Under the pieces are notes generated by a model, which saw only the letters and a program-made list of their open reading frames with translations, was not told the DNA's origin and searched no databases. Position numbers and translations under genes: made by a program. From IMG/VR virus record IMGVR_UViG_2606217117_000004: 25,733 bases of DNA; one strand, 5' to 3'. This document shows positions 1-22,879 of the stretch, piece after piece. Source of the stretch: a virus (lineage: Duplodnaviria > Heunggongvirae > Uroviricota > Caudoviricetes). Position 1 is the first letter of the stretch. Every line of letters begins with the position of its first letter.

Positions 1-93
1 ACTCAGTTGCTGGTCTTTCTGACGGAGGGCTTCAGCCTGCTCAGAGAGCAACCTTTCCAGCTCTGCGATGCGAATGAGGTATTTCTGACTCAT
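1..93 (-). CDS. IS66-family transposase (Orf3/TnpC), N-terminal 31 codons only
   Basis: Reverse complement of 1..93 translates to MSQKYLIRIAELERLLSEQAEALRQKDQQLS, the typical IS66 transposase N-terminus; ATG at 93..91; continues past the window edge. Confidence 0.75.
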   Translation of the reverse strand, partial: MSQKYLIRIAELERLLSEQAEALRQKDQQLS

Positions 94-123
94 GACCGTT
101 TTTATAATGCGGTCAGGAGTTTT

Positions 124-474
124 TTACAACATTGTCAGTGAGTTACGGCTGGATGTTTTTGGCTGACGCCAGTCCAGCTTATCGAGGAGCATTGCCAGTT
201 GCGAGCGGGTAATGGATACCTTGCCGTCACGTACCGCAGGCCAGATAAACTGGCCTTCCTCCAGGCGTTTGGTGAACAGGCACAGACCATCAGCATCAGC
301 CCAAAGAATTTTGACGGTGTCACCCCGTCGGCCACGGAAGATAAACAGGTGACCGGAGAAGGGATTATCATTCAGCACATGTTGTACCTGTTCTCCCAGT
401 CCGTTGAAGGATTTACGCATATCGGTAACGCCGGCAACGAGCCAGATACGGGTACCTGATGGGAGTGAGATCAT
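124..474 (-). CDS. IS66-family Orf2 (IS66-type TnpB)
   Basis: 116-aa ORF MISLPSGTRIWLVAGVTDMRKSFNGL... matches the conserved IS66 orf2 product. Confidence 0.8.
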   Translation of the reverse strand: MISLPSGTRIWLVAGVTDMRKSFNGLGEQVQHVLNDNPFSGHLFIFRGRRGDTVKILWADADGLCLFTKRLEEGQFIWPAVRDGKVSITRSQLAMLLDKLDWRQPKTSSRNSLTML

Positions 475-896
475 CTTCCCCTCCCGGTCAGTTCACGGAT
501 CAACACTGTGAGCAGCTCTGGCGATGGATTTTCCAGCGTCATGTTACCGTGACGGAATTCCACCTTGCAGGAACTGGCACTGACTCTGGTCTGAGTGGAA
601 GTGGATAAAGACGGCGCAATGGCCGCCACAGGTTCTTTCTGCTCATCCGGCGTTATTTCTACAGGTAATAATTCAACGCCAGTGTCAGAAGAGGTCGTTA
701 CCGGAAGACGCCGCGAAACACGCCCTTCGTTCTGCCAGAGCCTGAGCCATTTGAAAATAACATTATCATTGACGCCATTTTCACGTGCAATCTGTGCAAC
801 ACAAGCTCCAGGTTGTGATGCCAGTTCCACCATACGAAGTTTGAATTCATTCGAATAGTTTTTACGAGGTTCTTTTCGCCAGTCCTGTAATTCCAT
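471..896 (-). CDS. IS66-family accessory protein Orf1 (TnpA-like)
   Basis: 141-aa ORF MELQDWRKEPRKNYSNEFKLRMVELASQPG... recognised as IS66 orf1; stop overlaps the orf2 start. Confidence 0.8.
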   Translation of the reverse strand: MELQDWRKEPRKNYSNEFKLRMVELASQPGACVAQIARENGVNDNVIFKWLRLWQNEGRVSRRLPVTTSSDTGVELLPVEITPDEQKEPVAAIAPSLSTSTQTRVSASSCKVEFRHGNMTLENPSPELLTVLIRELTGRGR

Positions 897-910
897 ACTT
901 AGATGTCCGT

Positions 911-2002
911 CTATATCAGATGGGCGTCTAAGTTACCAATTCTCGTCTGATGGCTACATACGGCGGTCAGTTTACGCTTACCCTCAATTGCAGATAATCT
1001 TTGTCTTAATTCTGCGTTTTCTTCTTCCAGTGCTGTTATCCTGTCGTCTGACTCTCTGGCTACCTGAACAAGCAAGCCAGTAACACCAGAATAATCTACA
1101 GTGTAATACCGTTCACCTTCTTCGCCTTCAGATCCGCTACCACCGTCCCTATATTTTATCGTAGAGCCTACGGACTCTGGAATTGCTTCTAAGGCTTCCT
1201 GTGCGATAACACCAGCGTAAGGCATCCCGTTTTCTTTAAGCGTGTATGTATAACCATTCATCTTACGGATGCGATTGGTTGCATTATCAATCACCTGAAT
1301 ATTATCTTTCAGGTCTCGGTCAGAGGTCTGGTTAAATGCGGTCGCTTGACATGCACCATTAACAGCAAATGCATATGTGTCATCTGTTTGTTTTTGACCG
1401 AAGAATATAAAAGCCCCACCATCTACACCAACTTCATAAACAACCGGACGGCTAGAATTGCCCCACAATTTAGCAGTAACGCCAGCGTGAGCGGTTCCCT
1501 GTGTGTTTAGTGTCATGGTCGAACCATGATTAGCATATTTGATCTGTAGTGTGTCTGTATAATCAAATTTAATCAGGGCATTATCTACACGATCCCCATA
1601 GGACATGAGGCATTTACCCATTTTCAAATAACCAGCAGTGCCAGGGAAAATTAAAGTTCCTCCGTAAAGATCACTAAAGTCCCAAAAGATACCTTTTGTC
1701 CCGTTATGTGTGACGATCCTCGTCATTGTATCTTTAGTACCATCAATATTTTTTCTGGTATATATATCACTATAAGCGTTTTCCGTTTCACCAGTCTTAT
1801 TTGACAAGTGAATCTTACCGCTAAATATAGTTCCAGTGGTCGGCAATGCCTTTTGATCATAGATTACATTGCAATAACTATTCCATGTTGTTTTATTGTC
1901 TACATATGATTTTGTTGCATAGCTTCCTTGATCAGTTTTTAGTTTACTAACATCGGATTTTAGCGTTTTGATGTCATCAGGAATTACTGTTTTTGTAACC
2001 AT
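911..2002 (-). CDS. Distal tail fibre protein with C-terminal intramolecular chaperone (peptidase S74-like) domain; 3' end replaced by IS66 sequence
   Basis: 363-aa ORF with GGAG ribosome-binding site 7 nt upstream. C-terminal SDRDLKDNIQVID...GYTYTLKENG...coiled coil resembles the auto-cleaving chaperone domain of tail fibres and endosialidases. The last ~24 codons (GKRKLTAVCSHQTRIGNLDAHLI) are read from the IS end. AT-rich codon usage. Confidence 0.6.
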   Translation of the reverse strand: MVTKTVIPDDIKTLKSDVSKLKTDQGSYATKSYVDNKTTWNSYCNVIYDQKALPTTGTIFSGKIHLSNKTGETENAYSDIYTRKNIDGTKDTMTRIVTHNGTKGIFWDFSDLYGGTLIFPGTAGYLKMGKCLMSYGDRVDNALIKFDYTDTLQIKYANHGSTMTLNTQGTAHAGVTAKLWGNSSRPVVYEVGVDGGAFIFFGQKQTDDTYAFAVNGACQATAFNQTSDRDLKDNIQVIDNATNRIRKMNGYTYTLKENGMPYAGVIAQEALEAIPESVGSTIKYRDGGSGSEGEEGERYYTVDYSGVTGLLVQVARESDDRITALEEENAELRQRLSAIEGKRKLTAVCSHQTRIGNLDAHLI

Positions 2003-2014
2003 TGTCTTACTCCA

Positions 2015-2284
2015 TTAAGCCCATGTCCTTACATGCTGATCTGTCGTAATGAAAGGCATTAAAGAAGATATGTTTTTACTGCCATCAACAATCCTCATGT
2101 TTACGAAAAAACCACCGCGATCAATGCCTGTACATCTTTCGTTTTCTGGCTCCTCGTAATCAATAATGCAGCCAATAACATCAACAAGAACCCCATTTTC
2201 TTCTTCAAGACTGAACAGGCCACTGTCATATACAATTGCGTTAAACTGTTCTCTGTTATCGAATCGTAATGTTATATCCCGCAT
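2015..2284 (-). CDS. Hypothetical small acidic protein (89 aa) between the two fibre genes
   Basis: ORF whose ATG overlaps the stop of the upstream fibre gene (TAATG), indicating translational coupling. AT-rich; no family recognised. Confidence 0.45.
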   Translation of the reverse strand: MRDITLRFDNREQFNAIVYDSGLFSLEEENGVLVDVIGCIIDYEEPENERCTGIDRGGFFVNMRIVDGSKNISSLMPFITTDQHVRTWA

Positions 2285-4638
2285 TATACGTATTCCTTAA
2301 GCTGCGTATCTGACAATGCTCTGTTCCAGAAACGGAGGTTTTTTATATGACCATTAAGGTGTCGTAATCCTGTCGTCGTTTGCCCCCCGATACGAATCAC
2401 GGCTGCTTCACGAATATATTTCCATACTGTTTTGGTTTCAGTGCTTATATTCTTATTTGCAAATGAGCATGTCATGCCGTCAGCCTTAACCCTGAATCCC
2501 ATAACGAGATCTCTTACTCCGCATGACTCATATACACGCCGGTTAGCCCCGCCTATATCGCAATACGAATAACCATCCTGACTGATAGTTCCAGAAGAAC
2601 CAAACCCCATAATAAATGGGCCTCCGGACTGGTGATTTTCTGAATCAATGACACGCGGTGCAGCATTATGAGAAATAAACCAGTTTTTATGGACTTCCAC
2701 CATGAACGTAAAAGGCATGGTATACATATTTTTCATCAGCGGAAATTTACATAAATCTGATGCACGAGTCGCTGGCTCTGTTGTCGTTATGATAAAGGAA
2801 GTTGCACAAGCACCATACTCGAATTGCGGGGTGGTTACTTCTATCCAGTCACCTGTTGCAAAAGCCCCCACTGCTCTGTCGGCTGCAATTTGCAGCTGCG
2901 TACCAACCATTCCCCATTCTGGCAGACATTTCAGTGTTGCCTGAAAATATATCCATCCACTACCAGGGTCGATTTCAAAGTTTGCTGTTAATAGCTGGGC
3001 ATTACCACCCGTAATTTGTAGTTCATGAGTCTGTAATGACAAATAGGCGTCACAAAGGAAAGTGTATCCTTCCGAGTTATACCGTTCAAAACGGATACGT
3101 GCGCGAACATTGAGATCACTTCTTACCCTGAACGACGCGGTAACATACGGACCTTTACTGTACTGATCATCGCCAGTCACATCTATGCCTTTATTACCAG
3201 CAACTGTGCATATATTTCTCCCTGTTGTCGTTCCTGCTATCTCACTTCCTACTGTGAAACGTCCATATTTAAACTCAAATTCATCTGTTGATGATGTTAC
3301 AGATATACCACCGCTTTTATTCCACGCATCAGGATTAAAACTATTTACGAACATGTTTGTTCGCTGATTCTCTATCAGCAAACCATATTTTTCAAAACGA
3401 GGAACGTTATTCCCTGCCACGGTAATATGCCCGGACTTATCAATATACGTTGCTGATGAAGCGCGGCTAAATTGGCATATGCCATTAACAGGCATTGTTA
3501 TTTCATCACTGCCGATGGTTATTGTTTTATAGCCCGGGGCATACCCTGTTATCGCTTCCAGAGAATCATTCAAGGGTAGCCAGATATCAGGAAGCGGAGG
3601 GACTGAAGCAGGATCAGCGGCATCTTCTGCAATCCGGGCTGCATTCTCTGCTCTTGTTGCGGCTGACGTTGCTTCTATCTCGCTGGCTGCTGCTTTTGTT
3701 TCACTCGTCTTTGCGTTAGTTTCACTGGTTTTTGCAGCTTTTTGGCTATTAGCTGCCGCACTTGCAGAACCAGCTGCGGCACTCTCGCTTTGGGCCGCTG
3801 CATCCTGACTGTTTTTTGCCGCAGTTTCGCTGGCTTTGGCATTCGTTTCGCTGGTCTTCGCTGCCGTCTGGCTGGACTTTGCGTTAGTTTCACTCGTCTT
3901 CGCAGCTTTCTGGCTGTTAGCCGCAGCAGTTGCTGATCCAGCTGCTGAAGTCGCAGAACCGGCTGCTGCGCTCTCGCTTTCAGCTGCTGCAGCCTGGCTG
4001 TTTTTTGCCGCAGTTTCACTGGCTTTAGCATTCGTTTCGCTGGTTTTCGCTGCCGTCTGGCTGGACTTTGCGTTGGTTTCGCTCGTCTTTGCTGCTGTCT
4101 CGCTGTTTTTCGCGTTGGTTTCTGATTTTTTAGCTGCTGTCGCGGAATTTGCCGATGCAGTCTGCGAGGCCGCTGCCGCCTGTGCGCTGTTAGCTGCATT
4201 CGTTTCTGAGGTTTTCGCCGCGTTCTTCGATGATGCCGCTGCAGTTTCGGATTTCTTTGCCGCCGCTGCGCTCTGAGAGGCAGCTTCAGCGTTACGTGCT
4301 GCTTCTTCCACCATAGCCTCAAAACGGCGTAATGCCTCCGGCATGACATCCTCTTCCGTCATGGCACCGAGAAAATCATTCAGCGTCCCCGGCTTAGAAT
4401 CTTCATACACGGTGATGGTCCCGGCATGTGAAGGCGGAAAACCTTCAACCAGCAGGGTGACGTTGTACTGGCCATACTCAACATCCATGCTGTAACGCCC
4501 GGCTTCATCCGGATTTTCAGAGGCCACCGTGTTCACCAGTACCGTGGTGCTGTTACGCTTTGCCTTCAGTTGAATAGTGCAGTTCTGTATTGGTTTTCCC
4601 GCACCATCTTTCAGCACACCTGAAATCTGTACTGCCAT
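2284..4638 (-). CDS. stf: Side tail fibre protein: lambda Stf-like N-terminus, Ala/Ser/Thr-rich repeat shaft, lectin-like (ConA/LamG-type) C-terminal domain
   Basis: N-terminus MAVQISGVLKDGAGKPIQNCTIQLKAKRNSTT... matches lambda Stf from memory. Likely start is the ATG at 4638 (GGAG upstream); the ORF track starts at a GTG at 4644. C-terminus ...GLRHLNGHIKNLRFWNRALSDTQLKEYV resembles Laminin_G_3 / ConA-like lectin domains. Confidence 0.8.
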   Translation of the reverse strand: MAVQISGVLKDGAGKPIQNCTIQLKAKRNSTTVLVNTVASENPDEAGRYSMDVEYGQYNVTLLVEGFPPSHAGTITVYEDSKPGTLNDFLGAMTEEDVMPEALRRFEAMVEEAARNAEAASQSAAAAKKSETAAASSKNAAKTSETNAANSAQAAAASQTASANSATAAKKSETNAKNSETAAKTSETNAKSSQTAAKTSETNAKASETAAKNSQAAAAESESAAAGSATSAAGSATAAANSQKAAKTSETNAKSSQTAAKTSETNAKASETAAKNSQDAAAQSESAAAGSASAAANSQKAAKTSETNAKTSETKAAASEIEATSAATRAENAARIAEDAADPASVPPLPDIWLPLNDSLEAITGYAPGYKTITIGSDEITMPVNGICQFSRASSATYIDKSGHITVAGNNVPRFEKYGLLIENQRTNMFVNSFNPDAWNKSGGISVTSSTDEFEFKYGRFTVGSEIAGTTTGRNICTVAGNKGIDVTGDDQYSKGPYVTASFRVRSDLNVRARIRFERYNSEGYTFLCDAYLSLQTHELQITGGNAQLLTANFEIDPGSGWIYFQATLKCLPEWGMVGTQLQIAADRAVGAFATGDWIEVTTPQFEYGACATSFIITTTEPATRASDLCKFPLMKNMYTMPFTFMVEVHKNWFISHNAAPRVIDSENHQSGGPFIMGFGSSGTISQDGYSYCDIGGANRRVYESCGVRDLVMGFRVKADGMTCSFANKNISTETKTVWKYIREAAVIRIGGQTTTGLRHLNGHIKNLRFWNRALSDTQLKEYV
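3700..4190 (-). repeat. Intragenic tandem direct repeats (~186-bp unit, about 2.5 copies) in the stf shaft
   Basis: Near-identical nucleotide blocks start near 3814 and 4002, with a partial copy near 3700. They encode repeated KTSETNAKSSQTAAKTSETNAKASETAAKNSQ...SESAAAGSA...NSQKAA units. Confidence 0.7.
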
Positions 4639-4646
4639 ACTCACTC

Positions 4647-4677
4647 CACAAATAAAAAAGGCGCCATTGCTGGCGCC
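4647..4677 (-). terminator. Intrinsic terminator between J and stf
   Basis: On the minus strand: 7-bp perfect stem GGCGCCA / TGGCGCC with GCAA loop (4660..4677), followed by TTTTTTATTT (4650..4659), directly downstream of the J stop. Confidence 0.6.
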
Positions 4678-4698
4678 CGTATTGGGGTTATAAATATT

Positions 4699-7600
4699 TC
4701 AACGGATACTGATACCGGAAGCAGCTTTTTTGGTCACAATCACCGTACAGTCTGTGATGTTACCTGCGCCCTGATTGCCTTTCTGGAAAATCTTAAACTC
4801 CAGAGTGACGTTACCACCACCACTCGGCATATCAATAACCGCACTGTAACTACCGGGAATGGCTCCTTTAGTTTCTCTGGATGCGATTAATACGCCATTT
4901 TTGCGAACTTCAAAACCATAACCCGTGTATCGCGTACCTCCCGGGTTATTACCGCTCCCCGGATCGTCATACGCCACACCGTTAAAAATAATGGGCGGAA
5001 TAATGATTTGGCGGTCAAAGTTATGATCATCGTAAATGGTGACTGTAACCGTCCCGTTTGGTGTTTCCGTGTTACCCCACGTACCAGCCTTTTTCGGGAA
5101 TGATTTGGATACAGTTTTAACGAAGTCACCTCTGACCTGGTTCGCCTCCAGCATGCCCTTAATCGTACAGTTTTCATTTACCGTGACATTATTGAGCGTC
5201 CCGGAGTTCGCATTCACGTTACCGCTGATATCAGCATTTCTCGCCGTCAGCCGCCCGTCCGGTGTCAGGGAAAATGCCGGAGGATTACCGCCACTGGTAA
5301 TGGTGGGAGCCGTCAGATACTTCAGGAACACTTCGTTCATGAATATCTGGTTGCCCTGCGCCACAAACATCGGCGTTTCATTCCCGTTTGCCGGGTCAAT
5401 AAACGCGATACGGTTAGCGGCAACCAGGAACTGGCTCAGTTTGCCTTCCTCCGTATCCTCCATGCTGAGGCCAAGCCCCGCGACATAATGTTTGCCGTCT
5501 TTGGTCTGCTCAATTTTGACGCCCCACATGGCATTCCATTTATCGTTGGCGTCCTTCCACTCTTTCGAAAACTCCTCCAGTTTGCTGGCGTTATCCTCCG
5601 TCAGCTCGACTTTTTCCAGCAGCTCCTTGCCGAGATGGGATTCGGTTATCTGGCCTTTGAAAAAATCCAGGTAACCTTCCGCATCATCGCTCGCCCGACC
5701 GACGGCCTCCACGAATGCCGATTTGCCAACGGTGTTCACACTGCGAACGTAAAAATAATAATCATGGCCCGGCTTAATATTGATACTGGCAGCTATCCAG
5801 TACAGCGCCGTGCCAAGATAGCGGGCTGTGGTTTCAACCTGCCTGATATCGGTAATCCGCTTTTCCGAGAACCAGAACTCAAACTGTACCGTCGGATCAT
5901 AAACGGCAAGATGCGGCGTGGCGGTTATCTGAAAATAGCCCGGCGTCAGCTCAATCCGAGATGGCGCTGCCGGTGCGGCAATCCGGAACGATACCGACGC
6001 CGGATCGCCCTGCTGCCCCCAGGCATTTGCCGCCCGGACTGTCAGCCTGTAGTTTCCCAGCGCCAGTTGCGTGAAGCGGTATGTGGTTTCCGTCGTCCGG
6101 GCCGTGCTGACCAGCCGCTCACTGCCGTCATCCGCTGCCACGGTCAGGCGAAGCATAAAGCTCACCCCCTTCACCACCTTCGGCGTATCCCAGCGCGCCA
6201 GCACCTGGTATTCCCCGCTGTCTGCAGTGACTTCTGCGGTCAGATGCTGCACTGCTGGCGGCGTGACACCATTCACCGTGCCGCTCTGGTCACCGTCAAA
6301 GTGCGCCCCGTTATCCACGATGGCTTCTTTCTCCGGTACATGCTGCACGGCAGTGATGGCATACGTACCGTCATCGTTCTCACGGATACTCACACAGCGG
6401 AACAGGCGCTGGCGCAGCGTCGGCAGCTTCAGCCCCCACACGCTGTACTCGGCAACGCCGTCAGGAACACGGCTCACTTTTACCTTCACGCCGTCGGTGA
6501 CGGACTGAACCTCCACGCTGACCGGACTCCCCTGCCCGTCAACCAGGCTTATCAGCGTGGTGCCGGAAGATGGCAGCGTGATTTCACGGTCGAGCGTCAG
6601 CGTCCGGGTCTGGCTGTTTACCGCCAGCACGCGCCCGCCGGTGCTGATACCGGCATAGTCATCATCGCAGATTTCAATGACATCGCCCGGTACATGGCGA
6701 AGCCCTTCGGCACCCACGCTGAAGTCCACGGTCTGCGTTTCCAGCAGTTCTGTTTTAATCAGCCACAGCCCGGCGCGATGTGCCTGCCCCCGGCTGGTAC
6801 AGCCAAAAGCATCCATCTTCGTGACGCTACGACCGTAACGGGCAATGGCCTGCGTGTCCTCCACAAGCTCTGTCGCCGTCTCCCAGCCGTTATTCGGGTC
6901 AATCCAGTTCACCTCAACGGCATTATGGCGGTCCTTCAGGGCGCTGAAGCTGTAGCGGAACGGCGCACCATCATCCGGCATCACCACATTACTGCGGTTA
7001 TAGGTCCACACCTTATCCGACGGTCGGTCCTGCACGAACGTCAGCGTCTGCCCGTTCCATACCGGCATACAGCGCATCGCCGAGCAGAAATCACTGAGCA
7101 CATCCCACGCCTTGCGCTGTGTGGTCAGGTACGCATTACAGGTGATGCGCGGCTCCGTGCCGCCAAAACCGTCCGGCACCGACTGATCGCAATGCTGGCC
7201 GATGACATACAGCGCCCATTTGTCCACATCCGCCGCACCAAGACGTTTCCCCATGCCGTAGCGCGGATGGGTCAGCATATCCCACAGACACCAGGCCATG
7301 TTGTTGCTGTATGCTGGCTTAAACGTTCCGTCCCAGATACCGCTGTATTGCCGCGTCTGCGGGTTATAGTTCGACGGCACCTGCAGAATACGCCCGCGCA
7401 GATGATAATTACGGCTCACCTGCTGGCTGCCGAACTGCTCCGAGTCCACCTGCACGCCGACCAGTGCCGTGTTCGGGTAGCACTGTTTCACATCGATGAT
7501 TTCGGTGTATGACGACCAGAGCGTTTTGTTCTGCAGCTGGTCTGTGGTGCTGTCCGGCGTCATCCTGCGCATCCGGATACTGAACGGGCGCGGCGGCAGG

Positions 7601-8112
7601 TTACCCACCACCACCGAGGCCAGATACTGCGAGGTGGTTTTGCCCTTAATGGTGATGTCTTTTTCCGTCACCCAGCCACCATTACGCTGTATCTGAACCA
7701 GCAGGCGGACTTCCGACGGATTCCTGTCCCCCTTTGAGGTGGTTTCCACCAGTGCCTGCACGCCGAAGGTAAAACGCAGTCGGTCAATGTTTGCCGACGT
7801 GATGGTCCGGGTGATCGGCGTGTCGTATTTCACTTCCGTACCCAGCACCGTCTCGGAGCCGGAGGATTCAAATCCCTCCGGCGGTGTCTGCTCCTGCTCA
7901 CCGGCCCGGAACACCACCGTGACGCCGGAGATGTTGGTATTCCCCTCACTGTCCAGCACTGGCGTACTGTTCAGCAGCACGCTTTTTAATCCATCCACCG
8001 GACCTTCAATCGGCCCTTCGCTGATGGCATCGATCACACTCAGCAACTGCGTGGACTTCAGGTTGTCCTTCGCTTCGCGCGGAGTATGCCCCTTACTGCT
8101 GCCTTTACCCAT
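4699..8112 (-). CDS. J: Central tail fibre / host specificity protein J
   Basis: 1137-aa ORF; the N-terminus and most of the length look lambda gpJ-like. The C-terminal ~145 aa appear to differ from my recollection of lambda J. Confidence 0.9.
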
Positions 8113-8171
8113 TCCTCACGCTCCATAAACGACAAAACCGCCCGGAGGCGGTTTCACATAAACGTTTTTCA

Positions 8172-8843
8172 TCAGCGACCAATCACCACAACCTGACCAC
8201 CATCCCCTTCGTCTGCCGTGCTGATCTCCTGAGAGACCACCCGCGACCCCACGCGCATTTCACCGTACAGAACGGGCAGAACATTGCCCTGGGCAACCAT
8301 GTTATCCAGTGAGGAGAAATAGGTGTTCTGTTTGCCGTTATCTGTACTTGCTGCCGTGGGCGTCCTGGCTTTCGGTGCCAACATCTGCGCCACACCACCG
8401 AGCACCATACTGGCACCGAGAGAAAACAGGATACCGGTCATACCACCGGCCCCAATGGCTGCCCCCCATGCTGCAAGGGTGGCTCCGGCAGTAAAGAATG
8501 ATCCGGCAATGGCGGCAGCCCCCAGAACAATCTGGAATACGCCCCCTGACTTGGCCCCGGCGACTCTGGGAACAATATGAATCACAGCGCCGTCAGGCAG
8601 AGTCTCATGTAACTGCGCCGTTAACCCGGACGTGCTGACGTCCCGCCCGGCAATCCGTACCTGATACCAGCCGTCGCTCAGTTTCTGACGAAACGCCGGG
8701 AGCTGTGTGGCAAGTGCGCGGATGGCTTCAGCCCCCGTTTTCACACGAAGGTCGATGCGGCGGCCAAATCGTTGCAAATCCCCGTAAAGGCAGATGCGTG
8801 CCATTCCCGGTGACGCCAGAGGGAGTGTGTGCGTCGCTGCCAT
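8172..8843 (-). CDS. I: Tail tip assembly protein I
   Basis: 223 aa, lambda gpI-like; overlaps K by 103 nt as in lambda. Confidence 0.9.
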   Translation of the reverse strand: MAATHTLPLASPGMARICLYGDLQRFGRRIDLRVKTGAEAIRALATQLPAFRQKLSDGWYQVRIAGRDVSTSGLTAQLHETLPDGAVIHIVPRVAGAKSGGVFQIVLGAAAIAGSFFTAGATLAAWGAAIGAGGMTGILFSLGASMVLGGVAQMLAPKARTPTAASTDNGKQNTYFSSLDNMVAQGNVLPVLYGEMRVGSRVVSQEISTADEGDGGQVVVIGR

Positions 8844-9484
8844 TTGTCGGTGTACCTCTCTCGTTTGCTCAGTTGTTCAGGAATATGGTGCAGCAGCTCG
8901 CTGTCACCACAGTAAATGGCGGCATGATTCGGCACCGATGAACCAAAACAGCACAGCAGCACATCGCCCGGTTGTGCTGATGACAACGGCACCTGATACA
9001 GCCCTGTGGCCTCCAGATTATCCAGATAGAGATTCTGACCGTGACGCCACCAGTCATCCCCGCGATGAAAATCCGGCATCTCAATCCCCGCCAGATGATA
9101 AGCATCCCGGAACAGCGTGTAACAGTCCGTCACCCCGTGCTCAAAGCGCCGCCCGGTGAGATGCGGCACACAGCGGAACTTATGAATCGTCCCCCGGCAG
9201 ACCAGCCACCACGGCAAATCACTCTGCACCTGCAGCCGCCGGTCGGCCTCACTCAGCCAGGGCAGACCTCCGGGGTGGCTGTGGACCAGCGCCATAATCT
9301 CACCCTGCATTTCTGCCTGCAGCCAGTCTTCCGGCGACATACGGAAATACGCCTCCGGCTCACCGGAGATATTCACGCAGGGGAAATATCTTTCCCCCTC
9401 CGGCGTGCTTACCACGAAGCCGCACGACTCCGCTGGCGCACATCGCCGGGCGTGCGCCAGAATCGCTGATTCTGTCTGTGTCAT
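8741..9484 (-). CDS. K: Tail tip assembly protein K (MPN/JAB plus NlpC/P60-like); long form
   Basis: 247-aa ORF with HSHPGG metal-binding motif and upstream Glu residues. An internal ATG at 9340 would give the 199-aa product of the classical lambda annotation. Confidence 0.85.
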   Translation of the reverse strand: MTQTESAILAHARRCAPAESCGFVVSTPEGERYFPCVNISGEPEAYFRMSPEDWLQAEMQGEIMALVHSHPGGLPWLSEADRRLQVQSDLPWWLVCRGTIHKFRCVPHLTGRRFEHGVTDCYTLFRDAYHLAGIEMPDFHRGDDWWRHGQNLYLDNLEATGLYQVPLSSAQPGDVLLCCFGSSVPNHAAIYCGDSELLHHIPEQLSKRERYTDKWQRRTHSLWRHREWHASAFTGICNDLAAASTFV

Positions 9485-9489
9485 GGTAT

Positions 9490-10188
9490 TTACTGCGAAA
9501 GTTTGTTAATGGAAAGGAAGCCGCCAAAGTTGCCGACGTTATTGCGGAACTTACAACCGCTCAGGCATTTGCTGCATTTATCCTTCGTGATATCGGACGT
9601 CGGCTGATCATATTCATCCGCGACTGCCGGACCGTGATAACCGCACTCATCGCCGCGATAGGTCCAGGTGCAGGTGTTGGCCAGCATGATACGTCCCGGA
9701 AAAACAGCGCCGTCCGTTTCCGTCGGCGTGGACAGTACAAAAGAGGCACTGACCGCGCTCAGTTCGCTGCACTGCTCGATGCGCCAGCGGCTGATCACCT
9801 CCTGCTCCGGATCGGCGTCACTGTTTCCGTTGACGAAGTTCACCGCATCCAGAAAACGGGCGTAAACCTTACGCCGGACCACCGTTCCGCCGACCAGACT
9901 CTGCATATCTTCCGCCATCCCGGTGACCATACCGTACAGGTTAGAAACCGTCAGCGTGGGGCGCGTACTGGTGCCTTTGCCATTCAGTTCAAAACCGCTC
10001 CCCTGAATGGGATACGGCTGATACTGTCGCCCCTGCCAGGTGACCGGCTCACCTTTTTCGTTCTGCTCATTACAGAAAAAATAACGTTCTCCACCGACCT
10101 CTGTCAGGTCGATTTCCCAGAGCACCACGCTGGCCGACTGCTCCGCACGGGTGCATTCATTCAGTGTTTCCTGCCGGATATCCTGCAT
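9490..10188 (-). CDS. L: Tail tip protein L
   Basis: 232 aa, same length as lambda gpL; Cys-rich C-terminus. Confidence 0.9.
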   Translation of the reverse strand: MQDIRQETLNECTRAEQSASVVLWEIDLTEVGGERYFFCNEQNEKGEPVTWQGRQYQPYPIQGSGFELNGKGTSTRPTLTVSNLYGMVTGMAEDMQSLVGGTVVRRKVYARFLDAVNFVNGNSDADPEQEVISRWRIEQCSELSAVSASFVLSTPTETDGAVFPGRIMLANTCTWTYRGDECGYHGPAVADEYDQPTSDITKDKCSKCLSGCKFRNNVGNFGGFLSINKLSQ

Positions 10189-10517
10189 CAGTTCACCACC
10201 TGTTCAAACTCTGCGCTGAACTCAACACGCAACATACTGACCTGCGACGACCATTTTGCGCAGGTCACCTTTATCTGCCGCCACTCATAAGGCGGCGTCC
10301 ACAGAAAGGATTTCCAGCCCCCGTGCTCTTCCAGAAACGACTCCAGTACCGTGGCCTCCTCACGGGGGACAGAAAGCGTCACGCTGTACGTTTTCAGGTT
10401 GGCATTCAGCCCGGCAGGCGCTCGCTGAGAATAGCCATCACCAAAGCGCACCTTTCTTACAGAAGGGACCGAAGCCACATCCATACCGGGTTTCACTTTC
10501 CAGCGGAAGGTCTTCAT
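10188..10517 (-). CDS. M: Tail tip protein M
   Basis: 109 aa, lambda gpM-like; overlaps both neighbours. Confidence 0.9.
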   Translation of the reverse strand: MKTFRWKVKPGMDVASVPSVRKVRFGDGYSQRAPAGLNANLKTYSVTLSVPREEATVLESFLEEHGGWKSFLWTPPYEWRQIKVTCAKWSSQVSMLRVEFSAEFEQVVN

Positions 10518-13075
10518 CGTCCACCTCCGGAGAACAGGCCACCATCACGCATCTGTGTCTGAATTTCATCACGGGCACCCTTGCGGGCCATGTCATACAC
10601 CGCCTTCAGAGCAGCCGGACCTATCTGCCCGTTCGTGCCGTCGTTGTTAATCACCACATGGTTATTCTGCTCAAACGTCCCGGACGCCTGCGACCGGCTG
10701 TCTGCCATGCTGCCCGGTGTACCGACATAACCGCCGGTGGCATAGCCGCGCATCAGCCGGTAAAGATTCCCCACGCCAATCCGGCTGGTTGCCTCCTTCG
10801 TGAAGACAAATTCACCACGGTGAACAATCCCCGCTGGCTCATATTTGCCGCCGGTTCCCGTAAATCCTCCGGTTGCAAAATGGAATTTCGCCGCGGCTGC
10901 CTGAATGGCTGTCCCGCCTGACGCGGATGCGCCCCCACCAACAGCCCCGCCAATGGCGCTGCCGATACTCCCGACAATCCCCACCATTGCCTGCTTAAGC
11001 AGAATTTCTGTCATCATGGACAGCACGGAACGGGTGAAGCTGCGCCAGTTCTGCTCACTGCCGGTCAGCATCGCCGCCATATTCTGCGCAATACCATCAA
11101 AGGTCTGCGCGGCTGCACTTTTAACCTGCGACATACTGTCCGTGGCGCTCTCTTCCCACTCACTCCAGCCGGACTTCAGGCCTGCCATCCAGCTCCCGCG
11201 AAGCTGGTCTTCAGCCGCCCAGGTCTTTTTCTGCTCTGACATGACGTTATTCAGCGCCAGAGGATTATCGCCATACTGTTCCTTCAGGCGCTGTTCTGTG
11301 GCTTCCCGCGCTGCCTGCCGGTCAGTCAGCCCCCGGCTTTTCGCATCAATGGCGGTCCGTTTTGCCCGTTGCTGCTGTGCGAATTTATCCGCCTGCTGCG
11401 CCAGCGCGTTCAGGCGCTCCTGATACGTAACCTTGTCGCCAAGTGCAGCCAGCTGGCGTTTGTACTCCAGCGTCTCATCTTTATGCGCCAGCAGGGATTT
11501 CTCCTGTGCAGACAGCTGGCGACGTTGCGCTGCCTCCTCCAGTACCGCGAACTGACTCTCCGCCTTCCACAAATCCCGGCGCTGCTGGCTGATTTTCTCA
11601 TTTGCTCCGGCATGCTTCTCCAGCGTCCGGAGTTCAGCCTGAAGCGTCAGCAGGGCAGCATGAGCACTGTCTTCCTGACGATCGCCCGCAGACACCTTCA
11701 CGCCGGACTGTTTCGGCTTTTTCAGCGTCGCTTCATAGTCCTTTTTCGCCGCCGCCATCAGCGTGTTGTAATCTGCCTGCAGAATTTTCCCGTCCTTCAG
11801 TGCCTTGTTCAGTTCTTCCTGACGGGCGGTATATTTCTCCAGCGGCGTCTGCAGCCGTTCGTAAGCCTTCTGCGCCTCTTCGGTATATTTCAGCCGTGAC
11901 GCTTCAGTATCGCTCTGCTGCTGCGCATTTGTGTCCTGTTGACTCTGCTGTTCAGCCTTCTTTCTCGCGGCTTCAAGCGCAAGACGGGCCTTTTCACGAT
12001 CATCCCAGTAACGCGCCCGCGCTTCATCGTTAACAAAATAATCATCCTTGCGCAGACTCCAGATGTCGTCCGCTTTCTTAAACGCAGCCTCTGCCTTAAT
12101 CAGCATCTCCTGCGCGGTATCAGGACGACCAATATCCAGCACCGCATCCCACATGGATTTGAATGCCCGCGCGGTCCTGTCTGCCCAGGTCTCCAGCGTA
12201 CCCATGTTCTCTTTCAGGCGGCGGGTCTGGTCATCAAACCCTTTCGTCGCGGCCTCGTTCGCCGCCTGCAATGCCCCGGCTTCATCGCCGGAACGCTGCA
12301 ACTGAGCAACATACGCAATCTGCTCCGCCGTCACGTTATGGAACTGGCGTGCCATCGCCGTCAACCCCGACGTCGGGTCTGTGGTCAGCTTCCCGAAGGC
12401 TTCAGCGACCTTGTCCACCTCCACACCGGATGCAGAGGAGAAACGCGCCACACTCTGGCTGATGGACGCAATCTGAGCCTCACCGCTTACTCCCGCCTTA
12501 ACCAGTGCGCTGAGTGACTCGCTGGTCTGGTTAAACGTCAGCCCTGCCGCCTGCCCGGCTCTGGACAGGACCAGCATGCGATCTGCCGTCAGACCCGACT
12601 GATTGCCGGAAAGGACCAGCGTTTTGTTGAAATCGGACAGGGTTGAGTTGCCCTGATACCAGGCATACGCCAGCGCACCGGTCGCCACCGCCAGCGAGGT
12701 GGCCCCGACCATCGGCAGGGTGATCGCACCGGCAAGCCCCCTGAACATGGGGATCATCCCGCCGAAGGAGTCCTTCACCTGACCACCCTGTTGCAGCAGG
12801 ATCAGCCACGGACTTTGCCCGCCTGCAAGCTGCGTGGCCACGTCGGTGAACTGTGCAGGCAGCATACGCATGGCGGCTTTATACTGTCCGACGGAAATCC
12901 CCGCTTTCTGTGCAGCCAGCGCCTGCCGGTTCATTGACTGTTCAACGACTGCCGCTGTTTTTTTCGCATCACTTTCCGTACCGGAAAAATGACGCCTGAC
13001 TCTGGCCATCTGCTCGTCAAATCTGGCCGCATCCAGACTCAAATCAACGACCAGATCGCCTACCGGTTCAGCCAT
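10514..13075 (-). CDS. H: Tail tape measure protein H
   Basis: 853 aa, same length as lambda gpH; coiled-coil-rich with Gly-rich C-terminal region. Confidence 0.92.
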   Translation of the reverse strand: MAEPVGDLVVDLSLDAARFDEQMARVRRHFSGTESDAKKTAAVVEQSMNRQALAAQKAGISVGQYKAAMRMLPAQFTDVATQLAGGQSPWLILLQQGGQVKDSFGGMIPMFRGLAGAITLPMVGATSLAVATGALAYAWYQGNSTLSDFNKTLVLSGNQSGLTADRMLVLSRAGQAAGLTFNQTSESLSALVKAGVSGEAQIASISQSVARFSSASGVEVDKVAEAFGKLTTDPTSGLTAMARQFHNVTAEQIAYVAQLQRSGDEAGALQAANEAATKGFDDQTRRLKENMGTLETWADRTARAFKSMWDAVLDIGRPDTAQEMLIKAEAAFKKADDIWSLRKDDYFVNDEARARYWDDREKARLALEAARKKAEQQSQQDTNAQQQSDTEASRLKYTEEAQKAYERLQTPLEKYTARQEELNKALKDGKILQADYNTLMAAAKKDYEATLKKPKQSGVKVSAGDRQEDSAHAALLTLQAELRTLEKHAGANEKISQQRRDLWKAESQFAVLEEAAQRRQLSAQEKSLLAHKDETLEYKRQLAALGDKVTYQERLNALAQQADKFAQQQRAKRTAIDAKSRGLTDRQAAREATEQRLKEQYGDNPLALNNVMSEQKKTWAAEDQLRGSWMAGLKSGWSEWEESATDSMSQVKSAAAQTFDGIAQNMAAMLTGSEQNWRSFTRSVLSMMTEILLKQAMVGIVGSIGSAIGGAVGGGASASGGTAIQAAAAKFHFATGGFTGTGGKYEPAGIVHRGEFVFTKEATSRIGVGNLYRLMRGYATGGYVGTPGSMADSRSQASGTFEQNNHVVINNDGTNGQIGPAALKAVYDMARKGARDEIQTQMRDGGLFSGGGR

Positions 13076-13906
13076 ACCTGACTCCTCCTGCGATCCCTTC
13101 TGATACTGTCATCAGCATTACGTCATCCTCCGTCATGTCCGCCACATCCGGGGAAGCGGGGATAACTTCATTCCCGTCCGGGCCAAAGCGGACGCCTCCG
13201 GCAAGCCCTGCCGCTTTCTGCATCAGCACATCATCTTCAGGCTCTTCATCAGCCTCGCGCCGGTTCAGCAGACTGAAATCCAGCGGATGCATATCCGGAT
13301 CGCTGAAAAACAGGCTGAGTACGGTGTACGTCAGCCCGGAAAAGTGCATATCCAGCAGAACATCATGAAAATAATGGGTACTGTAAAAGCGGTGCCAGTC
13401 GGCATACTCCGTGGATGACATCCCGGCAAGCATGGCGCGCCAGTCGGGTCGCCCCATCTCACGCGCCAGTTTCAGGGCAAAACTCAGCTCACCGTCGAAC
13501 ACTTTCCCGCAGAAACAGGCTCTGCTGGCCCGGCGTCATCTGCCTGTTCAGGTGCATCATTCACAACAAACTCAGACATACCGGACAGACGCATTACCAC
13601 ATTTTCAGCCTGAGCAATTGCCTCTGTGGGCCAGGTGGTAAGCCCTTCCTGCTCAATTTGTTTAACGGCTTCATTCATGGACGGCATCTTTGTCTTCTGC
13701 GGATGGCTATGCCACAGGGACATCGCCACCAGAAAAGCACCGGTTCTGACGAGATCTTCCACGCTCACCTGTCGATTGAGACTGGATCCCGCCTGTTCTG
13801 CCTGTCGTTTCAGCAGGGCGAGATGCTCAATTCGCTGCAGGGCTGACAGTTCAGAAAGCGTGACGCTCACACCGTTATATTCAAATGATTCGGTTTTCAG
13901 GAACAT
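13068..13906 (-). CDS. G-T: Tail assembly chaperone G-T fusion, made by programmed -1 frameshift joining the G frame to the T frame
   Basis: G ORF (13484..13906) and T-frame ORF (13068..13502) overlap across the slippery heptamer G GGA AAG. The T frame has no independent ATG. Confidence 0.8.
13484..13906 (-). CDS. G: Tail assembly chaperone G
   Basis: 140 aa, lambda gpG-like; ends ...AGKCSTVS. Confidence 0.9.
   Translation of the reverse strand: MFLKTESFEYNGVSVTLSELSALQRIEHLALLKRQAEQAGSSLNRQVSVEDLVRTGAFLVAMSLWHSHPQKTKMPSMNEAVKQIEQEGLTTWPTEAIAQAENVVMRLSGMSEFVVNDAPEQADDAGPAEPVSAGKCSTVS
13502..13508 (-). other. Programmed -1 ribosomal frameshift slippery site GGGAAAG (G/G-T)
   Basis: Minus-strand sequence GCG GGA AAG TGT at the 3' end of G. 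The -1 frame continues GGG AAA GTG TTC GAC..., which is the T reading frame (..VFDGELSFALK). Confidence 0.8.
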
Positions 13907-13921
13907 CGCTGACTCTCCGGA

Positions 13922-14662
13922 TTAACTGTCGGTGACGGTGATTTCTGCAACCACAGCAAGTTCACCATTACCGGATACAACCGGAATGTTGACCTTGCCT
14001 GCAGCAACACCTTTCACGGTGATGGTCATACCACTGACCGACACGGTGGCTTTTGTTTTATCCGCAGACACCGCACGGAAGCTCTTGTCGGTTGCGCCTT
14101 CCGGCTGGAATGCCACGGTCAGCGTGGTGCTCTGCCCTTTCACCACCGAAGTGCTGGCAGGCGTCACGGTCATGCCGGTTGCCGCTGTTACCGTGCTGCG
14201 ATCTTCTGCCATCGACGGACGTCCCACGTTGGTGACTTTCACCGTGCGGGTGATCACTTCCTTCGCCGTCACCGCCTTACCGATACTGCTGACCCAGCCG
14301 CGGAACACATCGACCGTGCCGTTCGGGAAGCGGATTTTATAGGCACGGGTATCCCCTTCATTAAACCACGCCAGCAGCGCCTGCTGCCCCTGCTCTCCGG
14401 GCATCCACGCCAGCGTGAAGCTGGTATCTCCGGCAGATTTCTGCCCCTGCCCGGTCGCAGTCCAGTCCGCATCTTCATCATCGAGATAGCTGTCGTCATA
14501 GGACTCAGCGGTCAGTTCGCCGGGCGTCAGGTCTTTAACTTTAGCCAGACGCGACCAGTCAACGTCTGAAAGCGGGTTCGCATAAGGGTCACCGTTCCCC
14601 TTATAAACCCACAGTGTGGTCCCGGCCCCTTTCACCGGCATTACTGGATTTGGTACAGGCAT
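13922..14662 (-). CDS. V: Major tail tube protein V (with C-terminal Ig-like domain)
   Basis: Start set at MPVPNP (ATG 14662); the ORF track extends 10 codons further upstream. 246 aa, lambda gpV-like. Confidence 0.9.
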
Positions 14663-14669
14663 ATCGTCC

Positions 14670-15065
14670 TCACATTTCATAGGTAATGACATAAGTCAGA
14701 TCGGCTGAACTCCACAGGCCCGCATCATCGTCGCGCCGGTAGTCATAGCCACTGGCCACCATACTGGTGATCAAATCTGACAGTGCCGGGACATCGCTCA
14801 TCACCGGATAAATCCGGGACTCCATCCACGAATCCAGCTCTGAATCCGGCACCTGAGCAGGCAGGAAAACTTCAATATGCAGCTCCGCCTGCCAGGTATC
14901 ACTGTCCAGCTCTTCGCCCGTGTATTCAGCGCCGGTGAGATAAACGGCAATTGCCGGAAAATCCGCCTCATCAAAAACAGCGGGGCGACCATCAAAAAGC
15001 GTCGCCCCGGTGTCATGCTTCTCCAGTGCATCCAGTACGGCTGCACGGAGTTCAGTATGTTTCAT
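14670..15065 (-). CDS. U: Tail terminator protein U
   Basis: 131 aa, lambda gpU-like. Confidence 0.9.
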
Positions 15066-15640
15066 CGCTTTATTACCATTCTCAGTTGATGCTGCAGCGC
15101 ATAGCCCAGCTCTTTCGGAAGACGTTCACGCCGTATCCGTTCAATATTCTGTTTAAACGCCGTGGTAAGCGGCACCGCCATCGGGATTTTCACCACATCA
15201 ATGGGGTAACGGTTTTTCCCGGCCACACGCTGCATGACATGCCACCGGCCATTTTTCAGTTGCTGAATAAACGCGCCGGGAATACGACGGTTTCCCACCA
15301 CAAGCACGCTGCCGCCACCTTTCAGGGATGAACGCTGCCCCTTTTTACGACGTCTGCGGCGGGAAAGGACAACCCGCGCGTTACCCAGCTTGATTACGGG
15401 CAAATCCCCCCGGTTAACCCTGATTCTGGCCTGCGGATTTTTGACCGTGGCCCTTTTCAGCCTGGCCCTTTCCTTTACCAGTTTCCGGCGTACCTTTGTC
15501 TCACGGGCAACCTGTGACGCCGACTGCGATATCGCGGATGAAGCAACGCGGTTAATGGCCATTGCGGCGGCACCGGGCACCGCCGTTCTGCTGATACGGC
15601 TGAGGTTTTCAACGGCCTGCTCAAGACCTTTTATGGCCAT
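15062..15640 (-). CDS. Z: Tail completion protein Z
   Basis: 192 aa, lambda gpZ-like. Confidence 0.9.
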   Translation of the reverse strand: MAIKGLEQAVENLSRISRTAVPGAAAMAINRVASSAISQSASQVARETKVRRKLVKERARLKRATVKNPQARIRVNRGDLPVIKLGNARVVLSRRRRRKKGQRSSLKGGGSVLVVGNRRIPGAFIQQLKNGRWHVMQRVAGKNRYPIDVVKIPMAVPLTTAFKQNIERIRRERLPKELGYALQHQLRMVIKR

Positions 15641-15651
15641 ACATCCCCCTT

Positions 15652-16005
15652 TCAGCGGCGACGGTTAACGGCAGGCGGTACGCCCCGCCCAAGCCAGAGA
15701 TGACAGCTTCCACCATCATCCGGCGAAACCCGATCTACCCAGAAATTTTCCTCACCGATGGTCAGCGTGTCTCCACGCCGCAGCTGCCGCACCTCATCAG
15801 TCCGGACAAACAGGGACGGGCTGGAGCCTTCAACGCGCACGCCCTGTCCGGCATAGCTGATATTTTCAGGGTCATCAAAAACACCACGTATCACCGCACC
15901 TGACTGCTCACCGGATGTCATGGTGGCTGACGTTCCCATGTACCCGCGAATCGTTTCATCGGCGCGGGCAATGGCAGCATCGAACAGGTTATCGAAATCA
16001 GCCAC
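15652..16005 (-). CDS. FII: Head-tail joining protein FII
   Basis: 117 aa, lambda gpFII-like. Confidence 0.9.
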   Translation of the reverse strand: MADFDNLFDAAIARADETIRGYMGTSATMTSGEQSGAVIRGVFDDPENISYAGQGVRVEGSSPSLFVRTDEVRQLRRGDTLTIGEENFWVDRVSPDDGGSCHLWLGRGVPPAVNRRR

Positions 16006-16016
16006 AGCGCCTCCCG

Positions 16017-16415
16017 TTATTGCATTCTGGCCAGGCCGCGCTCTGTCATTTCGGCTGCCACACCGGCAGAGACACGAAACGCCGTTCCCGGCAGCACAAA
16101 TGCCACAGGTTCATCCCGCGTGGCGTGAAGTGCATCAGTATGCAGCTTCACCAGTGCCACGACCATGACCAGTTCAGACGTATCCAGAATCACGGTATCC
16201 GGCTGCGCTGATCCCACCTCATTTTCATGTCCGGTCAGCACATTTTCCCGGCTGAGAGGGGTGTCCTGACCGGCAGTTTCATCCGTGTCATCAAGCTCCT
16301 CTTCCAGCTCTGCCACACGGAGCGCCAGTTCTTCTTTCGTCCCCGTCAGGCTGACATCACGGTTCAGTTGTTCACCCAGCGAGCGGAGACGGGCAATCAG
16401 TTCATCTTTCGTCAT
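16017..16415 (-). CDS. FI: DNA packaging / head assembly protein FI
   Basis: Start set at MTKDELIARLRSLGEQ (ATG 16415, GGAGGAG 5 nt upstream); the ORF track extends 13 codons further. 132 aa. Confidence 0.88.
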   Translation of the reverse strand: MTKDELIARLRSLGEQLNRDVSLTGTKEELALRVAELEEELDDTDETAGQDTPLSRENVLTGHENEVGSAQPDTVILDTSELVMVVALVKLHTDALHATRDEPVAFVLPGTAFRVSAGVAAEMTERGLARMQ

Positions 16416-16456
16416 GGACTCCTCCACAGAGAAACAATGGCCCCGAAGGGCCATGA

Positions 16457-17482
16457 TTACGCCAGTTGTACGGACACGAACTCATCAGGGTCAGCCAGCA
16501 GCATCAGCGGTGCTGACTGAATCATGGTGAACTCTCGCGCCGGATCGCCGGATGTCTTCCAGTTTTTCGGATAACGGGGAGACGCATTAATACCCTCACT
16601 CAATGCATCCGCATCCTGAATACAGCCATAGGTGCGCAGACCGCGTGCATGAGTGTTACCCAGCACCATCGTGTTGTCCGGCAGGAAGTTCTTTTTGACG
16701 CCGTTTTCCACGTACTGTCCGGAATACACGACGATGGCCACATCTCCATACATTCCCTTATAAGACACCGCTTTGCCCAGGTCTTTTACCGCTGTCTCCA
16801 GTTCGGAATGAGAGCCGCGACGGGTATCCAGCTTCTCCCTGACGGCTTTGAAGGAACGGAACAGCGCCCAGCCTTTCGGATCAAACACGATGATATTCAC
16901 CACGCCGCTGGCGTTCAGCGCGTAGGCTTCGATATCGTCGGTCGGATCATACGTGGACTTGTCACGCTTGCTCCACTCCGTGCCGCCGGACTGCGTGATG
17001 TTGTTGGCCGCACTGCGGCCCATATCCACCTCAACCGGATCGAAGGCTTCACCGGTCATGGTGTATTTGCCCTTGAGCACGGCAGAAACGGCCTGCATCT
17101 CTTCGACCTGAGCAATGGCCAGCTCTTCGTCACGCATGTTCTGCATGATGATGCGACGGCGGCGGTAAGCCGGGTCCGCCAGATTCTGCGGATCTTCATC
17201 CGGCAGGCGACGCAGGGTCATCTGCGGATTCACCTCATGCTTGGGTTTGACATATCCCGGCGTAAATTCAGAGGTGGAGCCGCCACGGGAGCGGATAACC
17301 TCACCGGAAACAATCGGCGAAACGTACAGCGCCATGTTTACCAGTCCCGGAATTTGTGAGAGATAGACTTTCTCCGTAGTGAAGGGATAGCTCTCACGGA
17401 AAAAGAGACGCAGAAACAGCGGATCAAACTTAAATTTCTGCTCATTTGCCGCCAGCAGCTGGGCGGTTGTGTACATCGACAT
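16457..17482 (-). CDS. E: Major capsid protein E
   Basis: 341 aa, lambda gpE-like. Confidence 0.93.
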   Translation of the reverse strand: MSMYTTAQLLAANEQKFKFDPLFLRLFFRESYPFTTEKVYLSQIPGLVNMALYVSPIVSGEVIRSRGGSTSEFTPGYVKPKHEVNPQMTLRRLPDEDPQNLADPAYRRRRIIMQNMRDEELAIAQVEEMQAVSAVLKGKYTMTGEAFDPVEVDMGRSAANNITQSGGTEWSKRDKSTYDPTDDIEAYALNASGVVNIIVFDPKGWALFRSFKAVREKLDTRRGSHSELETAVKDLGKAVSYKGMYGDVAIVVYSGQYVENGVKKNFLPDNTMVLGNTHARGLRTYGCIQDADALSEGINASPRYPKNWKTSGDPAREFTMIQSAPLMLLADPDEFVSVQLA

Positions 17483-17536
17483 AAAAAAATCCCGTAAAAA
17501 AGCCGCACAGGCGGCCTTTAGTGATGAAGGGTAAAG

Positions 17537-17869
17537 TTAAACGATGCTGATTGCCGTTCCGGCAAACGCGGTCCGTTTTTTCGTCTCGTCGCTGGCAGCC
17601 TCCGGCCAGAGCACATCCTCATAACGGAACGTGCCGGACTTGTAGAACGTCAGTGTGGTGCTGGTCTGGTCAGCAGCAACCGCAAGAATGCCAACGGCAG
17701 CACCGTCGGTGGTGCCATCCCACGCAACCAGCTTACGGGTGGAGGTGTCCAGCATCAGCGGGGTCATTGCAGGCGCTTTCGCACTCAATCCGCCGGGCGC
17801 GGTTGCGGTATGAGCCGGGTCACTGTTGCCCAGCGGCTGGTAATGGGTAAAGGTTTCTTTGCTCGTCAT
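17537..17869 (-). CDS. D: Head decoration protein D
   Basis: Start at [12 protein letters not shown] (ATG 17869); 110 aa, lambda gpD-like. Confidence 0.92.
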
Positions 17870-17878
17870 AAACATCCC

Positions 17879-18484
17879 TTACACTGGTGTGTTCAGCAAA
17901 TCGTTAACGGCATCAGATGCCGGGTTACCTGCAGCCAGCGGTGCCGGTGCCCCCTGCATCAGACGATCCAGCGCAGTGTCACTGCGCGCCTGTGCACTCT
18001 GTGGTGCTGCGGCCAGAATGCGGCGGGCCGTTTCCACGGTCATACCGGGGGTTTCTGCCAGCACGCGGGCCTGTTCTTCGCGTCCGTGAGCCTCCTCACA
18101 GTTGAGGATCCCCATAATGCGGCTGTTTTCTGCCGCAACCGCAGCGGTGATCTGCGCGTTCACGTCCGGCTGCGCCGCGCTGGCGTTTTCGCCCTCCGTC
18201 GCTGGCACCACGTCAGTAACGTCAGCCTGCGAAGCAGTGGCTGAAACAGTTGTTGATTGAGTCTCTTTGGTCATTCGCCCTCCTGAGAGACGGGATTTAC
18301 GTGCATCCAGTGCATCACGCATAACGGTGATCGCATCGGTGCTGTTGACAAGTTCATCAGCCAGTCCGGCATCAATGGCCTCCTGACCGCTGTACACTGC
18401 AGCCTCGGTATCCAGCACAGCCTGCACGGACAGGCCGGTATATGCCGACACCTTCTGCGCAAACATCCGGCGGGTTGCATCCAT
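17879..18484 (-). CDS. nu3: Scaffolding protein Nu3 (in-frame internal start within C)
   Basis: In-frame ATG at 18484 (MDATRRMFAQKVSAYTG...) gives a 201-aa product sharing the C stop codon, as for lambda Nu3. Confidence 0.7.
   Translation of the reverse strand: MDATRRMFAQKVSAYTGLSVQAVLDTEAAVYSGQEAIDAGLADELVNSTDAITVMRDALDARKSRLSGGRMTKETQSTTVSATASQADVTDVVPATEGENASAAQPDVNAQITAAVAAENSRIMGILNCEEAHGREEQARVLAETPGMTVETARRILAAAPQSAQARSDTALDRLMQGAPAPLAAGNPASDAVNDLLNTPV

Positions 18485-19178: not shown

Positions 19179-19198
<20 letters not shown>
17879..19198 (-). CDS. C: Capsid assembly protease C (S49 family)
   Basis: GTG start at 19198 with GGAGGAG upstream gives a 439-aa product beginning (M)TAELRNLPHIASMAFNEPL, as in lambda gpC. 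The ORF track extends upstream in frame. Confidence 0.9.

Positions 19199-22879
<3,681 letters not shown>

Follow-up and report, generated by a model that had tools for sequence, protein, structure and literature searches.

Fibres and tailspikes of the S74/ICA type, among them the K1F endosialidase, T5 pb1 and S16 gp37, share the Pfam domain PF13884, a Ser-x4-Lys dyad and a C-terminal domain ending in a heptad-repeat helix. In T5 pb1, the Ser1264/Lys1269 pair carries out self-cleavage, and the C-terminal helix forms the central triple coiled coil of the chaperone, where folding of the trimer has been proposed to begin (PMC4690869). In MYRF, the homologous ICA domain is followed by several hundred residues, and it trimerises and cleaves in that context (PMC3742443). 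ISEc23, for its part, is a catalogued insertion sequence (IS) of 2,532 bp with co-oriented tnpA-tnpB-tnpC genes, overlapping gene junctions, an 8-bp target duplication and GTAAGCG ends; ends of this type have been reported for other members of the IS66 family (PMC12888890). The closest described phage is Escherichia phage PhiR11_1 (PV340547.1, 49,016 bp), a lambda-like temperate phage for which our literature search found no published paper.

Here, we analyse a 25,733-nt stretch of DNA (the window) that resembles all three. It shares with PhiR11_1 the collinear late genes R through J, the Stf gene, an 89-aa gene and an S74 fibre, whereas PhiR11_1 has an uninterrupted 346-aa fibre followed by a terminator and a gene for a 95-aa protein, without ISEc23. 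Its element differs from annotated ISEc23 copies in the insertion site alone, and 981 bp of it lie within the window. Unlike other S74/ICA proteins, its fibre has the last six residues replaced by 23 IS-coded ones, and the predicted mature part is short (226 aa) and lacks a solved relative by sequence. Very probably, ISEc23 transposed into a lambda-like E. coli prophage, replaced the tip of a fibre chaperone and became a young lineage marker of neutral-to-mildly-deleterious effect.

The prophage and its late genes

Positions 982..25733 align with PhiR11_1 as one collinear block (99.44% identity over 24,753 bp, with 2 gaps). Gene lengths equal those of PhiR11_1 for R/Rz, Nu1, A, B, C, D, E, Z, U, V, G, T, H, M, L, K, I, J, Stf and the 89-aa gene, and full-length Pfam matches were obtained for Nu1, A, B, C, E, V, H, L, R and Rz. 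The fibre of PhiR11_1 is the uninterrupted form, with 100% amino-acid identity. The structural module had been described in a first-pass annotation as otherwise intact, and this collinearity with a deposited phage bears that out. No tRNA genes were found in the 25,733-nt window. A 50,509-bp variant, PhiR11_1_star (PV340548.1, listed host ECOR13), has an IS1 that splits the integrase gene and an IS2 near the right end, so IS-laden versions have been deposited as phage genomes.

Two genes precede the S74 fibre gene on the minus strand:

2284..4644, minus strand: Stf-like side tail fibre with a prophage tail fibre N-terminal domain (PF08400, E=6e-68; phrog_1419)
2015..2284, minus strand: 89-aa gene between the two fibre genes, of unknown function (PHROG match, phrog_1361)

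The Stf-like gene contains two 168-bp direct repeats (3751..3918 and 3940..4107, 87.5% identical) inside a long Ala/Ser/Thr-rich run (AAKTSETNAKSSQT...), and these are likely a substrate for variation in the length of the fibre shaft. The start of the 89-aa gene overlaps the Stf stop; the gene is conserved in its place between the Stf-like gene and the S74 fibre gene, and may encode an adaptor or assembly factor for the second fibre. An ORF of 674 aa on the plus strand (5488..7512), antisense to gene J, is almost certainly a non-coding shadow ORF.

Identity and boundary of the element

The window begins inside the insertion sequence, whose genes here (tnpA, tnpB and the first part of tnpC) are all encoded by the minus strand:

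1..981, minus strand: left part of ISEc23 (IS66 family); its 981 bp match the beginning of the 2,532-bp L005 element with 100% identity
1..93, minus strand: 5' end of tnpC (DDE transposase), with its ATG at 93..91; the gene exits the window at its start
124..474, minus strand: tnpB, an IS66 Orf2-like accessory protein of 116 aa (TnpB_IS66, PF05717, E=1.1e-36)
471..896, minus strand: tnpA, an HTH accessory protein of 141 aa (HTH_Tnp_1, PF01527, E=5e-12)
958..981, minus strand: left terminal inverted repeat, GTAAGCGTAAACTGACCGCCGTAT, pairing imperfectly with the right end, GTAAGCGTCAACGGAGCACCGTAT; five copies diverge past 981
982..989, no strand assigned: one copy of the 8-bp target-site duplication, CCTCAATT as read on the plus strand; single in the empty site of L002, double in L001 and L005

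The first 31 codons of tnpC are present, and they match the start of the CDS at 4480..6093 of L001 (strain LC-1302-2020). At L005 (assembly GCA_964038535.1), which matches the window with 100% identity over 8,002 bases, the full tnpC product of 537 aa has Pfam matches to LZ_Tnp_IS66, zf-IS66, DDE_Tnp_IS66 and DDE_Tnp_IS66_C. The IS66 gene set (tnpA HTH, tnpB Orf2 and tnpC DDE in one orientation) is therefore present, with the full tnpC seen in L005. When complete E. coli genomes were searched, the first 1,100 bases of the window had matches in 5,013 records, and in 2,292 records the best place had at least 99% identity. RefSeq labels identical copies as ISEc23, at thousands of places across E. 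coli genomes, and identity to annotated copies is 99.4-100%. By its sequence, the element at 1..981 is ISEc23, and the earlier assignment to the IS66 family is confirmed both by the tnpA and tnpB Pfam matches and by the RefSeq copies.

The end of the element falls exactly at 981, where …CGCTTAC is followed directly by CCTCAATT…. This is fixed from both sides: five independent ISEc23 copies in unrelated contexts are identical through ...CGCTTAC at 981 and differ from the next base, while the match of uninterrupted fibre alleles to the window starts at 982. The terminal repeat opens on the minus strand with GTAAGCGTAAACTG (981..968), at the coordinates where the first-pass annotation had placed it. 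Both terminal inverted repeats are imperfect and start with GTAAGCG, the left end being in the window and the right end in L005 and L001. Some copies had seemed to match 12-21 bases further than 981. Alignment showed unrelated flanks there, and we discarded these matches as chance or gapped extensions favoured by the ranking.

The first-pass annotation had also asked whether an 8-bp target duplication exists beyond the window, and it does. In strain FDAARGOS_1249 (L002), the empty site reads ...GACGCAAGCGCCG-CCTCAATT-GCAGATAATC..., with a single copy of the octamer. The same flanks are found in L001 and L005 with CCTCAATT on either side of the 2,532-bp element, and it is in such loci, identical to the window, that the second copy is seen. 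Because the flanks and both copies of the octamer surround the whole element there, the insertion is best read as simple transposition: it left an 8-bp duplication, as is characteristic of the IS66 family, and removed no sequence. From these identical loci we infer a complete element in the source genome, its right end lying outside the window.

Genome H3 (T309.Ta3) was considered as a third genome with this junction and was rejected; it has a different ISEc23 insertion, downstream of a small gene that follows a related fibre. An independent ISEc23 insertion is found in another lambdoid prophage (L004, NZ_CP128255.1, 3480..5981), at the distal end of the equivalent fibre module. There, the element lies downstream of the small gene after the fibre, and beyond it come a 21-aa tail-fibre-assembly remnant and pinQ.

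The chimeric fibre gene and the displaced region

The fibre gene and its parts are arranged as follows:

911..2002, minus strand: chimeric fibre ORF of 363 aa (340 native codons followed by 23 from the IS, and a stop)
1325..2002, minus strand: aa 1-226, the predicted mature fibre (phrog_4563), which the insertion leaves as it was; its DNA is 100% identical to that of the empty L002 allele
983..1324, minus strand: native chaperone part, aa 227-340 (Pfam S74 at aa 227-278), with the Ser227/Lys232 dyad and the C-terminal heptad helix
911..981, minus strand: IS-coded tail of the ORF, GKRKLTAVCSHQTRIGNLDAHLI, with TAG at 913..911 (direct reading)

The second side-fibre gene is interrupted 20 nt short of its end, and the fibre frame extends 71 nt into the left end of ISEc23. 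In uninterrupted alleles, including that of phage PhiR11_1, identical DNA encodes a native fibre of 346 aa ending in ...RLSAIEAALASK (…LSAIEAALASK). This is the full profile length of the phrog_4563 tail fibre (1-346 of 346). In the window, the fibre ends in ...RLSAIE followed by GKRKLTAVCSHQTRIGNLDAHLI (…AIEGKRK...HLI*), so the last six native residues, AALASK, are replaced by 23 others, of which the first (Gly) comes from a hybrid codon. The first-pass annotation had the ORF crossing the end of the IS and taking its last ~24 codons from it, in agreement with the 23 codons and stop found here. Intact homologues of this allele end not at the junction residue but six residues past it.

In the empty allele, a GC-rich hairpin with a T-run, an intrinsic terminator, lies 7 nt past the native stop. 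After it comes the gene for a hydrophobic 95-aa protein (phrog_1443, no Pfam match; 3651..3938 in L002 and 42625..42912 in L016). ISEc23 has moved these parts 2.5 kb away (the last six codons of the native frame, its stop, the terminator and the 95-aa gene), and none of them was deleted. Of the earlier suggestion that the native end was displaced or lost, displacement thus holds and loss does not, as the identical loci retain all four. HEPN- and FRG-domain genes lie further downstream of the 95-aa gene on the other strand. Together with the 95-aa gene, just past the left edge of the window, they resemble cargo or a defence islet in the right arm of the prophage.

The ISEc23 genes are co-oriented with the late operon, and 14 nt separate the chimeric stop (913..911) from the tnpA ATG downstream of it. 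In promoter and terminator scans of 1..2400, no site exceeded the shuffled expectation, and none resembling a terminator was seen between the fibre end and tnpA. Because of the shared orientation, the short distance and the lack of such a site, transcription from the late promoter could plausibly continue into the transposase genes.

The chaperone domain and the fate of the fibre

The Peptidase_S74 domain (PF13884, 'chaperone of endosialidase') matches aa 227-278 of the fibre with 50.3 bits, against a cut-off of 22, confirming the intramolecular chaperone that had been proposed for this gene. Across 19 aligned family members, S227, D228 and K232 vary hardly at all, and S227/K232 is the counterpart of the T5 pb1 cleavage pair. 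By analogy, the domain would nucleate trimerisation through its C-terminal coiled coil and then cleave itself at the conserved serine, here Ser227. The change made by ISEc23 would be confined to the C-terminal chaperone, the part predicted to be released after Ser227, and the mature fibre (aa 1-226) would keep its wild-type sequence if folding succeeds.

The heptad core of the last helix consists of I322, L325, N329, L332, L336, I339 and L343. Only the L343 layer is lost in the chimeric protein, which retains the core from I322 to I339 (6/7 layers). The length of this helix is naturally variable, since homologues with ~70% identity (P0018-P0033) end 3 residues before the column equivalent to the junction, and other homologues have helices ~20 residues longer. 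An AlphaFold2 monomer of the chimeric protein, built with the 19-sequence alignment, had a mean pLDDT of 56 and a pTM of 0.29, with a helix predicted at 304-360. Confidence falls from ~78 to 39 across the IS-coded tail, as expected where the alignment has no coverage. The model was too poor for a fold search and was set aside as a structural guide. Sequence searches against PDB chains gave no match at E<=0.01 for the native fibre, and for the chaperone domain only designed coiled coils and a weak match to S16 gp37 (6f45, E=0.12). A preprint on deep mutational scanning of the K1F tailspike makes no statement on stop-codon tolerance at the extreme C-terminus (PMC12632334).

Concern about the function of this fibre has a structural basis, because T5 pb1 folding is proposed to start at the C-terminal helix; it is weakened by the unchanged mature fibre and the small change in the chaperone. 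With the nucleation point proposed to be in this helix (PMC4690869), the Gly and the basic 23-residue tail, which contains a Cys, could interfere with trimer nucleation. The shorter and longer helices of natural homologues, and the MYRF domain with its long continuation, argue that the change is tolerable. Folding of the chimeric fibre probably succeeds, perhaps less efficiently.

Age and spread of the insertion

The IS-bearing allele and the empty allele of L002 have no differences in 3,508 flanking bp, and the ISEc23 copies of L001 and L005 are identical to each other; the event is therefore young. The exact 363-aa protein was found in 12-21 contigs, from at least 7 NCBI assemblies and one metagenome, compared with 51 contigs for the exact native protein. 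Some proteins of draft assemblies (P0126, P0129) stop right at the junction. Only two of the 5,426 complete E. coli genomes searched have this junction, and each of them contains a further IS3.

The IS3-family element of these genomes lies two codons upstream of Ser227, at a site corresponding to ~1327..1332 and thus almost exactly at the boundary of mature fibre and chaperone. It is seen in L001 (7333..8663) and L003 and yields a 241-aa protein (P0123, 42 contigs), while another split product, P0127, bears the IS66-coded tail. These IS3-bearing derivatives outnumber the exact chimeric protein. One strain also has a further IS3 in Stf. The insertion had been called recent and strain-specific; the first of these terms fits the identical flanks, whereas the second does not fit an allele found in several assemblies and with IS3 derivatives. 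The series of empty site, ISEc23, and ISEc23 with IS3 is one of stepwise IS accumulation in resident prophage fibre genes. The IS3-bearing descendants show that the fibre gene is dispensable in the lysogen, which fits a fibre that was still functional as well as one that was already dead.

Alternative explanations

Could the junction be a chimeric join made during assembly at a repeated IS? Short-read assemblies are commonly broken or mis-joined at IS copies, and the several draft proteins that stop exactly at the junction are of the kind this would produce. However, closed genomes from different laboratories have this junction too, together with a perfect 8-bp duplication at the far end of the element, which refutes an artefact for practical purposes and leaves it a vanishingly small probability. 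Inactivation of the fibre deserves more weight, though we consider it unlikely. Here, loss of the end of the coiled coil together with the foreign tail would give no trimer, and a misfolded, uncleaved protein. The proposed start of T5 pb1 folding at the C-terminal helix (PMC4690869), the Gly placed directly after E340, the loss of the L343 layer and the later IS3 insertions in the same gene of relatives would all agree with a dead gene. Against this, six of the seven core layers are retained, natural homologues have shorter helices, and the MYRF ICA domain tolerates a long C-terminal continuation (PMC3742443). L002 also has an IS5 in its Stf gene while its S74 fibre is intact, so IS elements accumulate without prior inactivation. 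Between a fibre that is still made, perhaps less efficiently, and one that is dead, we find the former likelier. The suggestion in the first-pass annotation that the insertion could inactivate or alter the fibre holds for alteration (six residues exchanged for 23); inactivation is possible but not indicated by the layers kept and the shorter natural homologues.

The main consequence might also fall on the phage genome and the IS rather than on the fibre, which seems to us improbable. PhiR11_1 at 49,016 bp with the 2,532 bp of ISEc23 would give a cos phage of ~51.5 kb, near the limit of the lambda head, whose capacity is ~105% of 48.5 kb. Late transcription would in addition enter tnpA-B-C, as the orientation, the lack of a terminator-like site, the 14 nt between stop and tnpA ATG and the displacement of the native terminator would allow. 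However, the PhiR11_1_star variant, which has IS1 and IS2 and a length of 50.5 kb, was deposited as a phage, and the limit is not clearly exceeded. A more speculative extension, to which we give little credence, places ISEc23 at the end of a Q-antiterminated late operon, where induction would set off a burst of transposase and, if ~51.5 kb can be packaged, the IS would be carried to new hosts. If true, this would be an IS using a viable phage as both switch and vehicle, with the fibre barely harmed.

Significance

The core of the first-pass reading, an IS66-family element in the 3' end of a fibre gene with an S74 chaperone, is supported, and we favour a simple history for it. A copy of ISEc23 transposed into the second side-fibre gene, 20 nt short of its end, and duplicated 8 bp of target. 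The insertion is best seen as a young marker of a single E. coli lineage, in which the fibre genes of the prophage go on gathering IS insertions. The event is real but ordinary, being a catalogued IS in a prophage gene, and it matters little beyond annotation. There, it explains why GenBank entries labelled tail fibre or 'chaperone of endosialidase family protein' have 363 aa rather than 346 aa. It also supplies a three-state lineage marker: empty, ISEc23, and ISEc23 with IS3. Finally, it offers a naturally occurring exchange of the C-terminus of an intramolecular chaperone, which could be used to ask how much of the terminal coiled coil such a chaperone needs.
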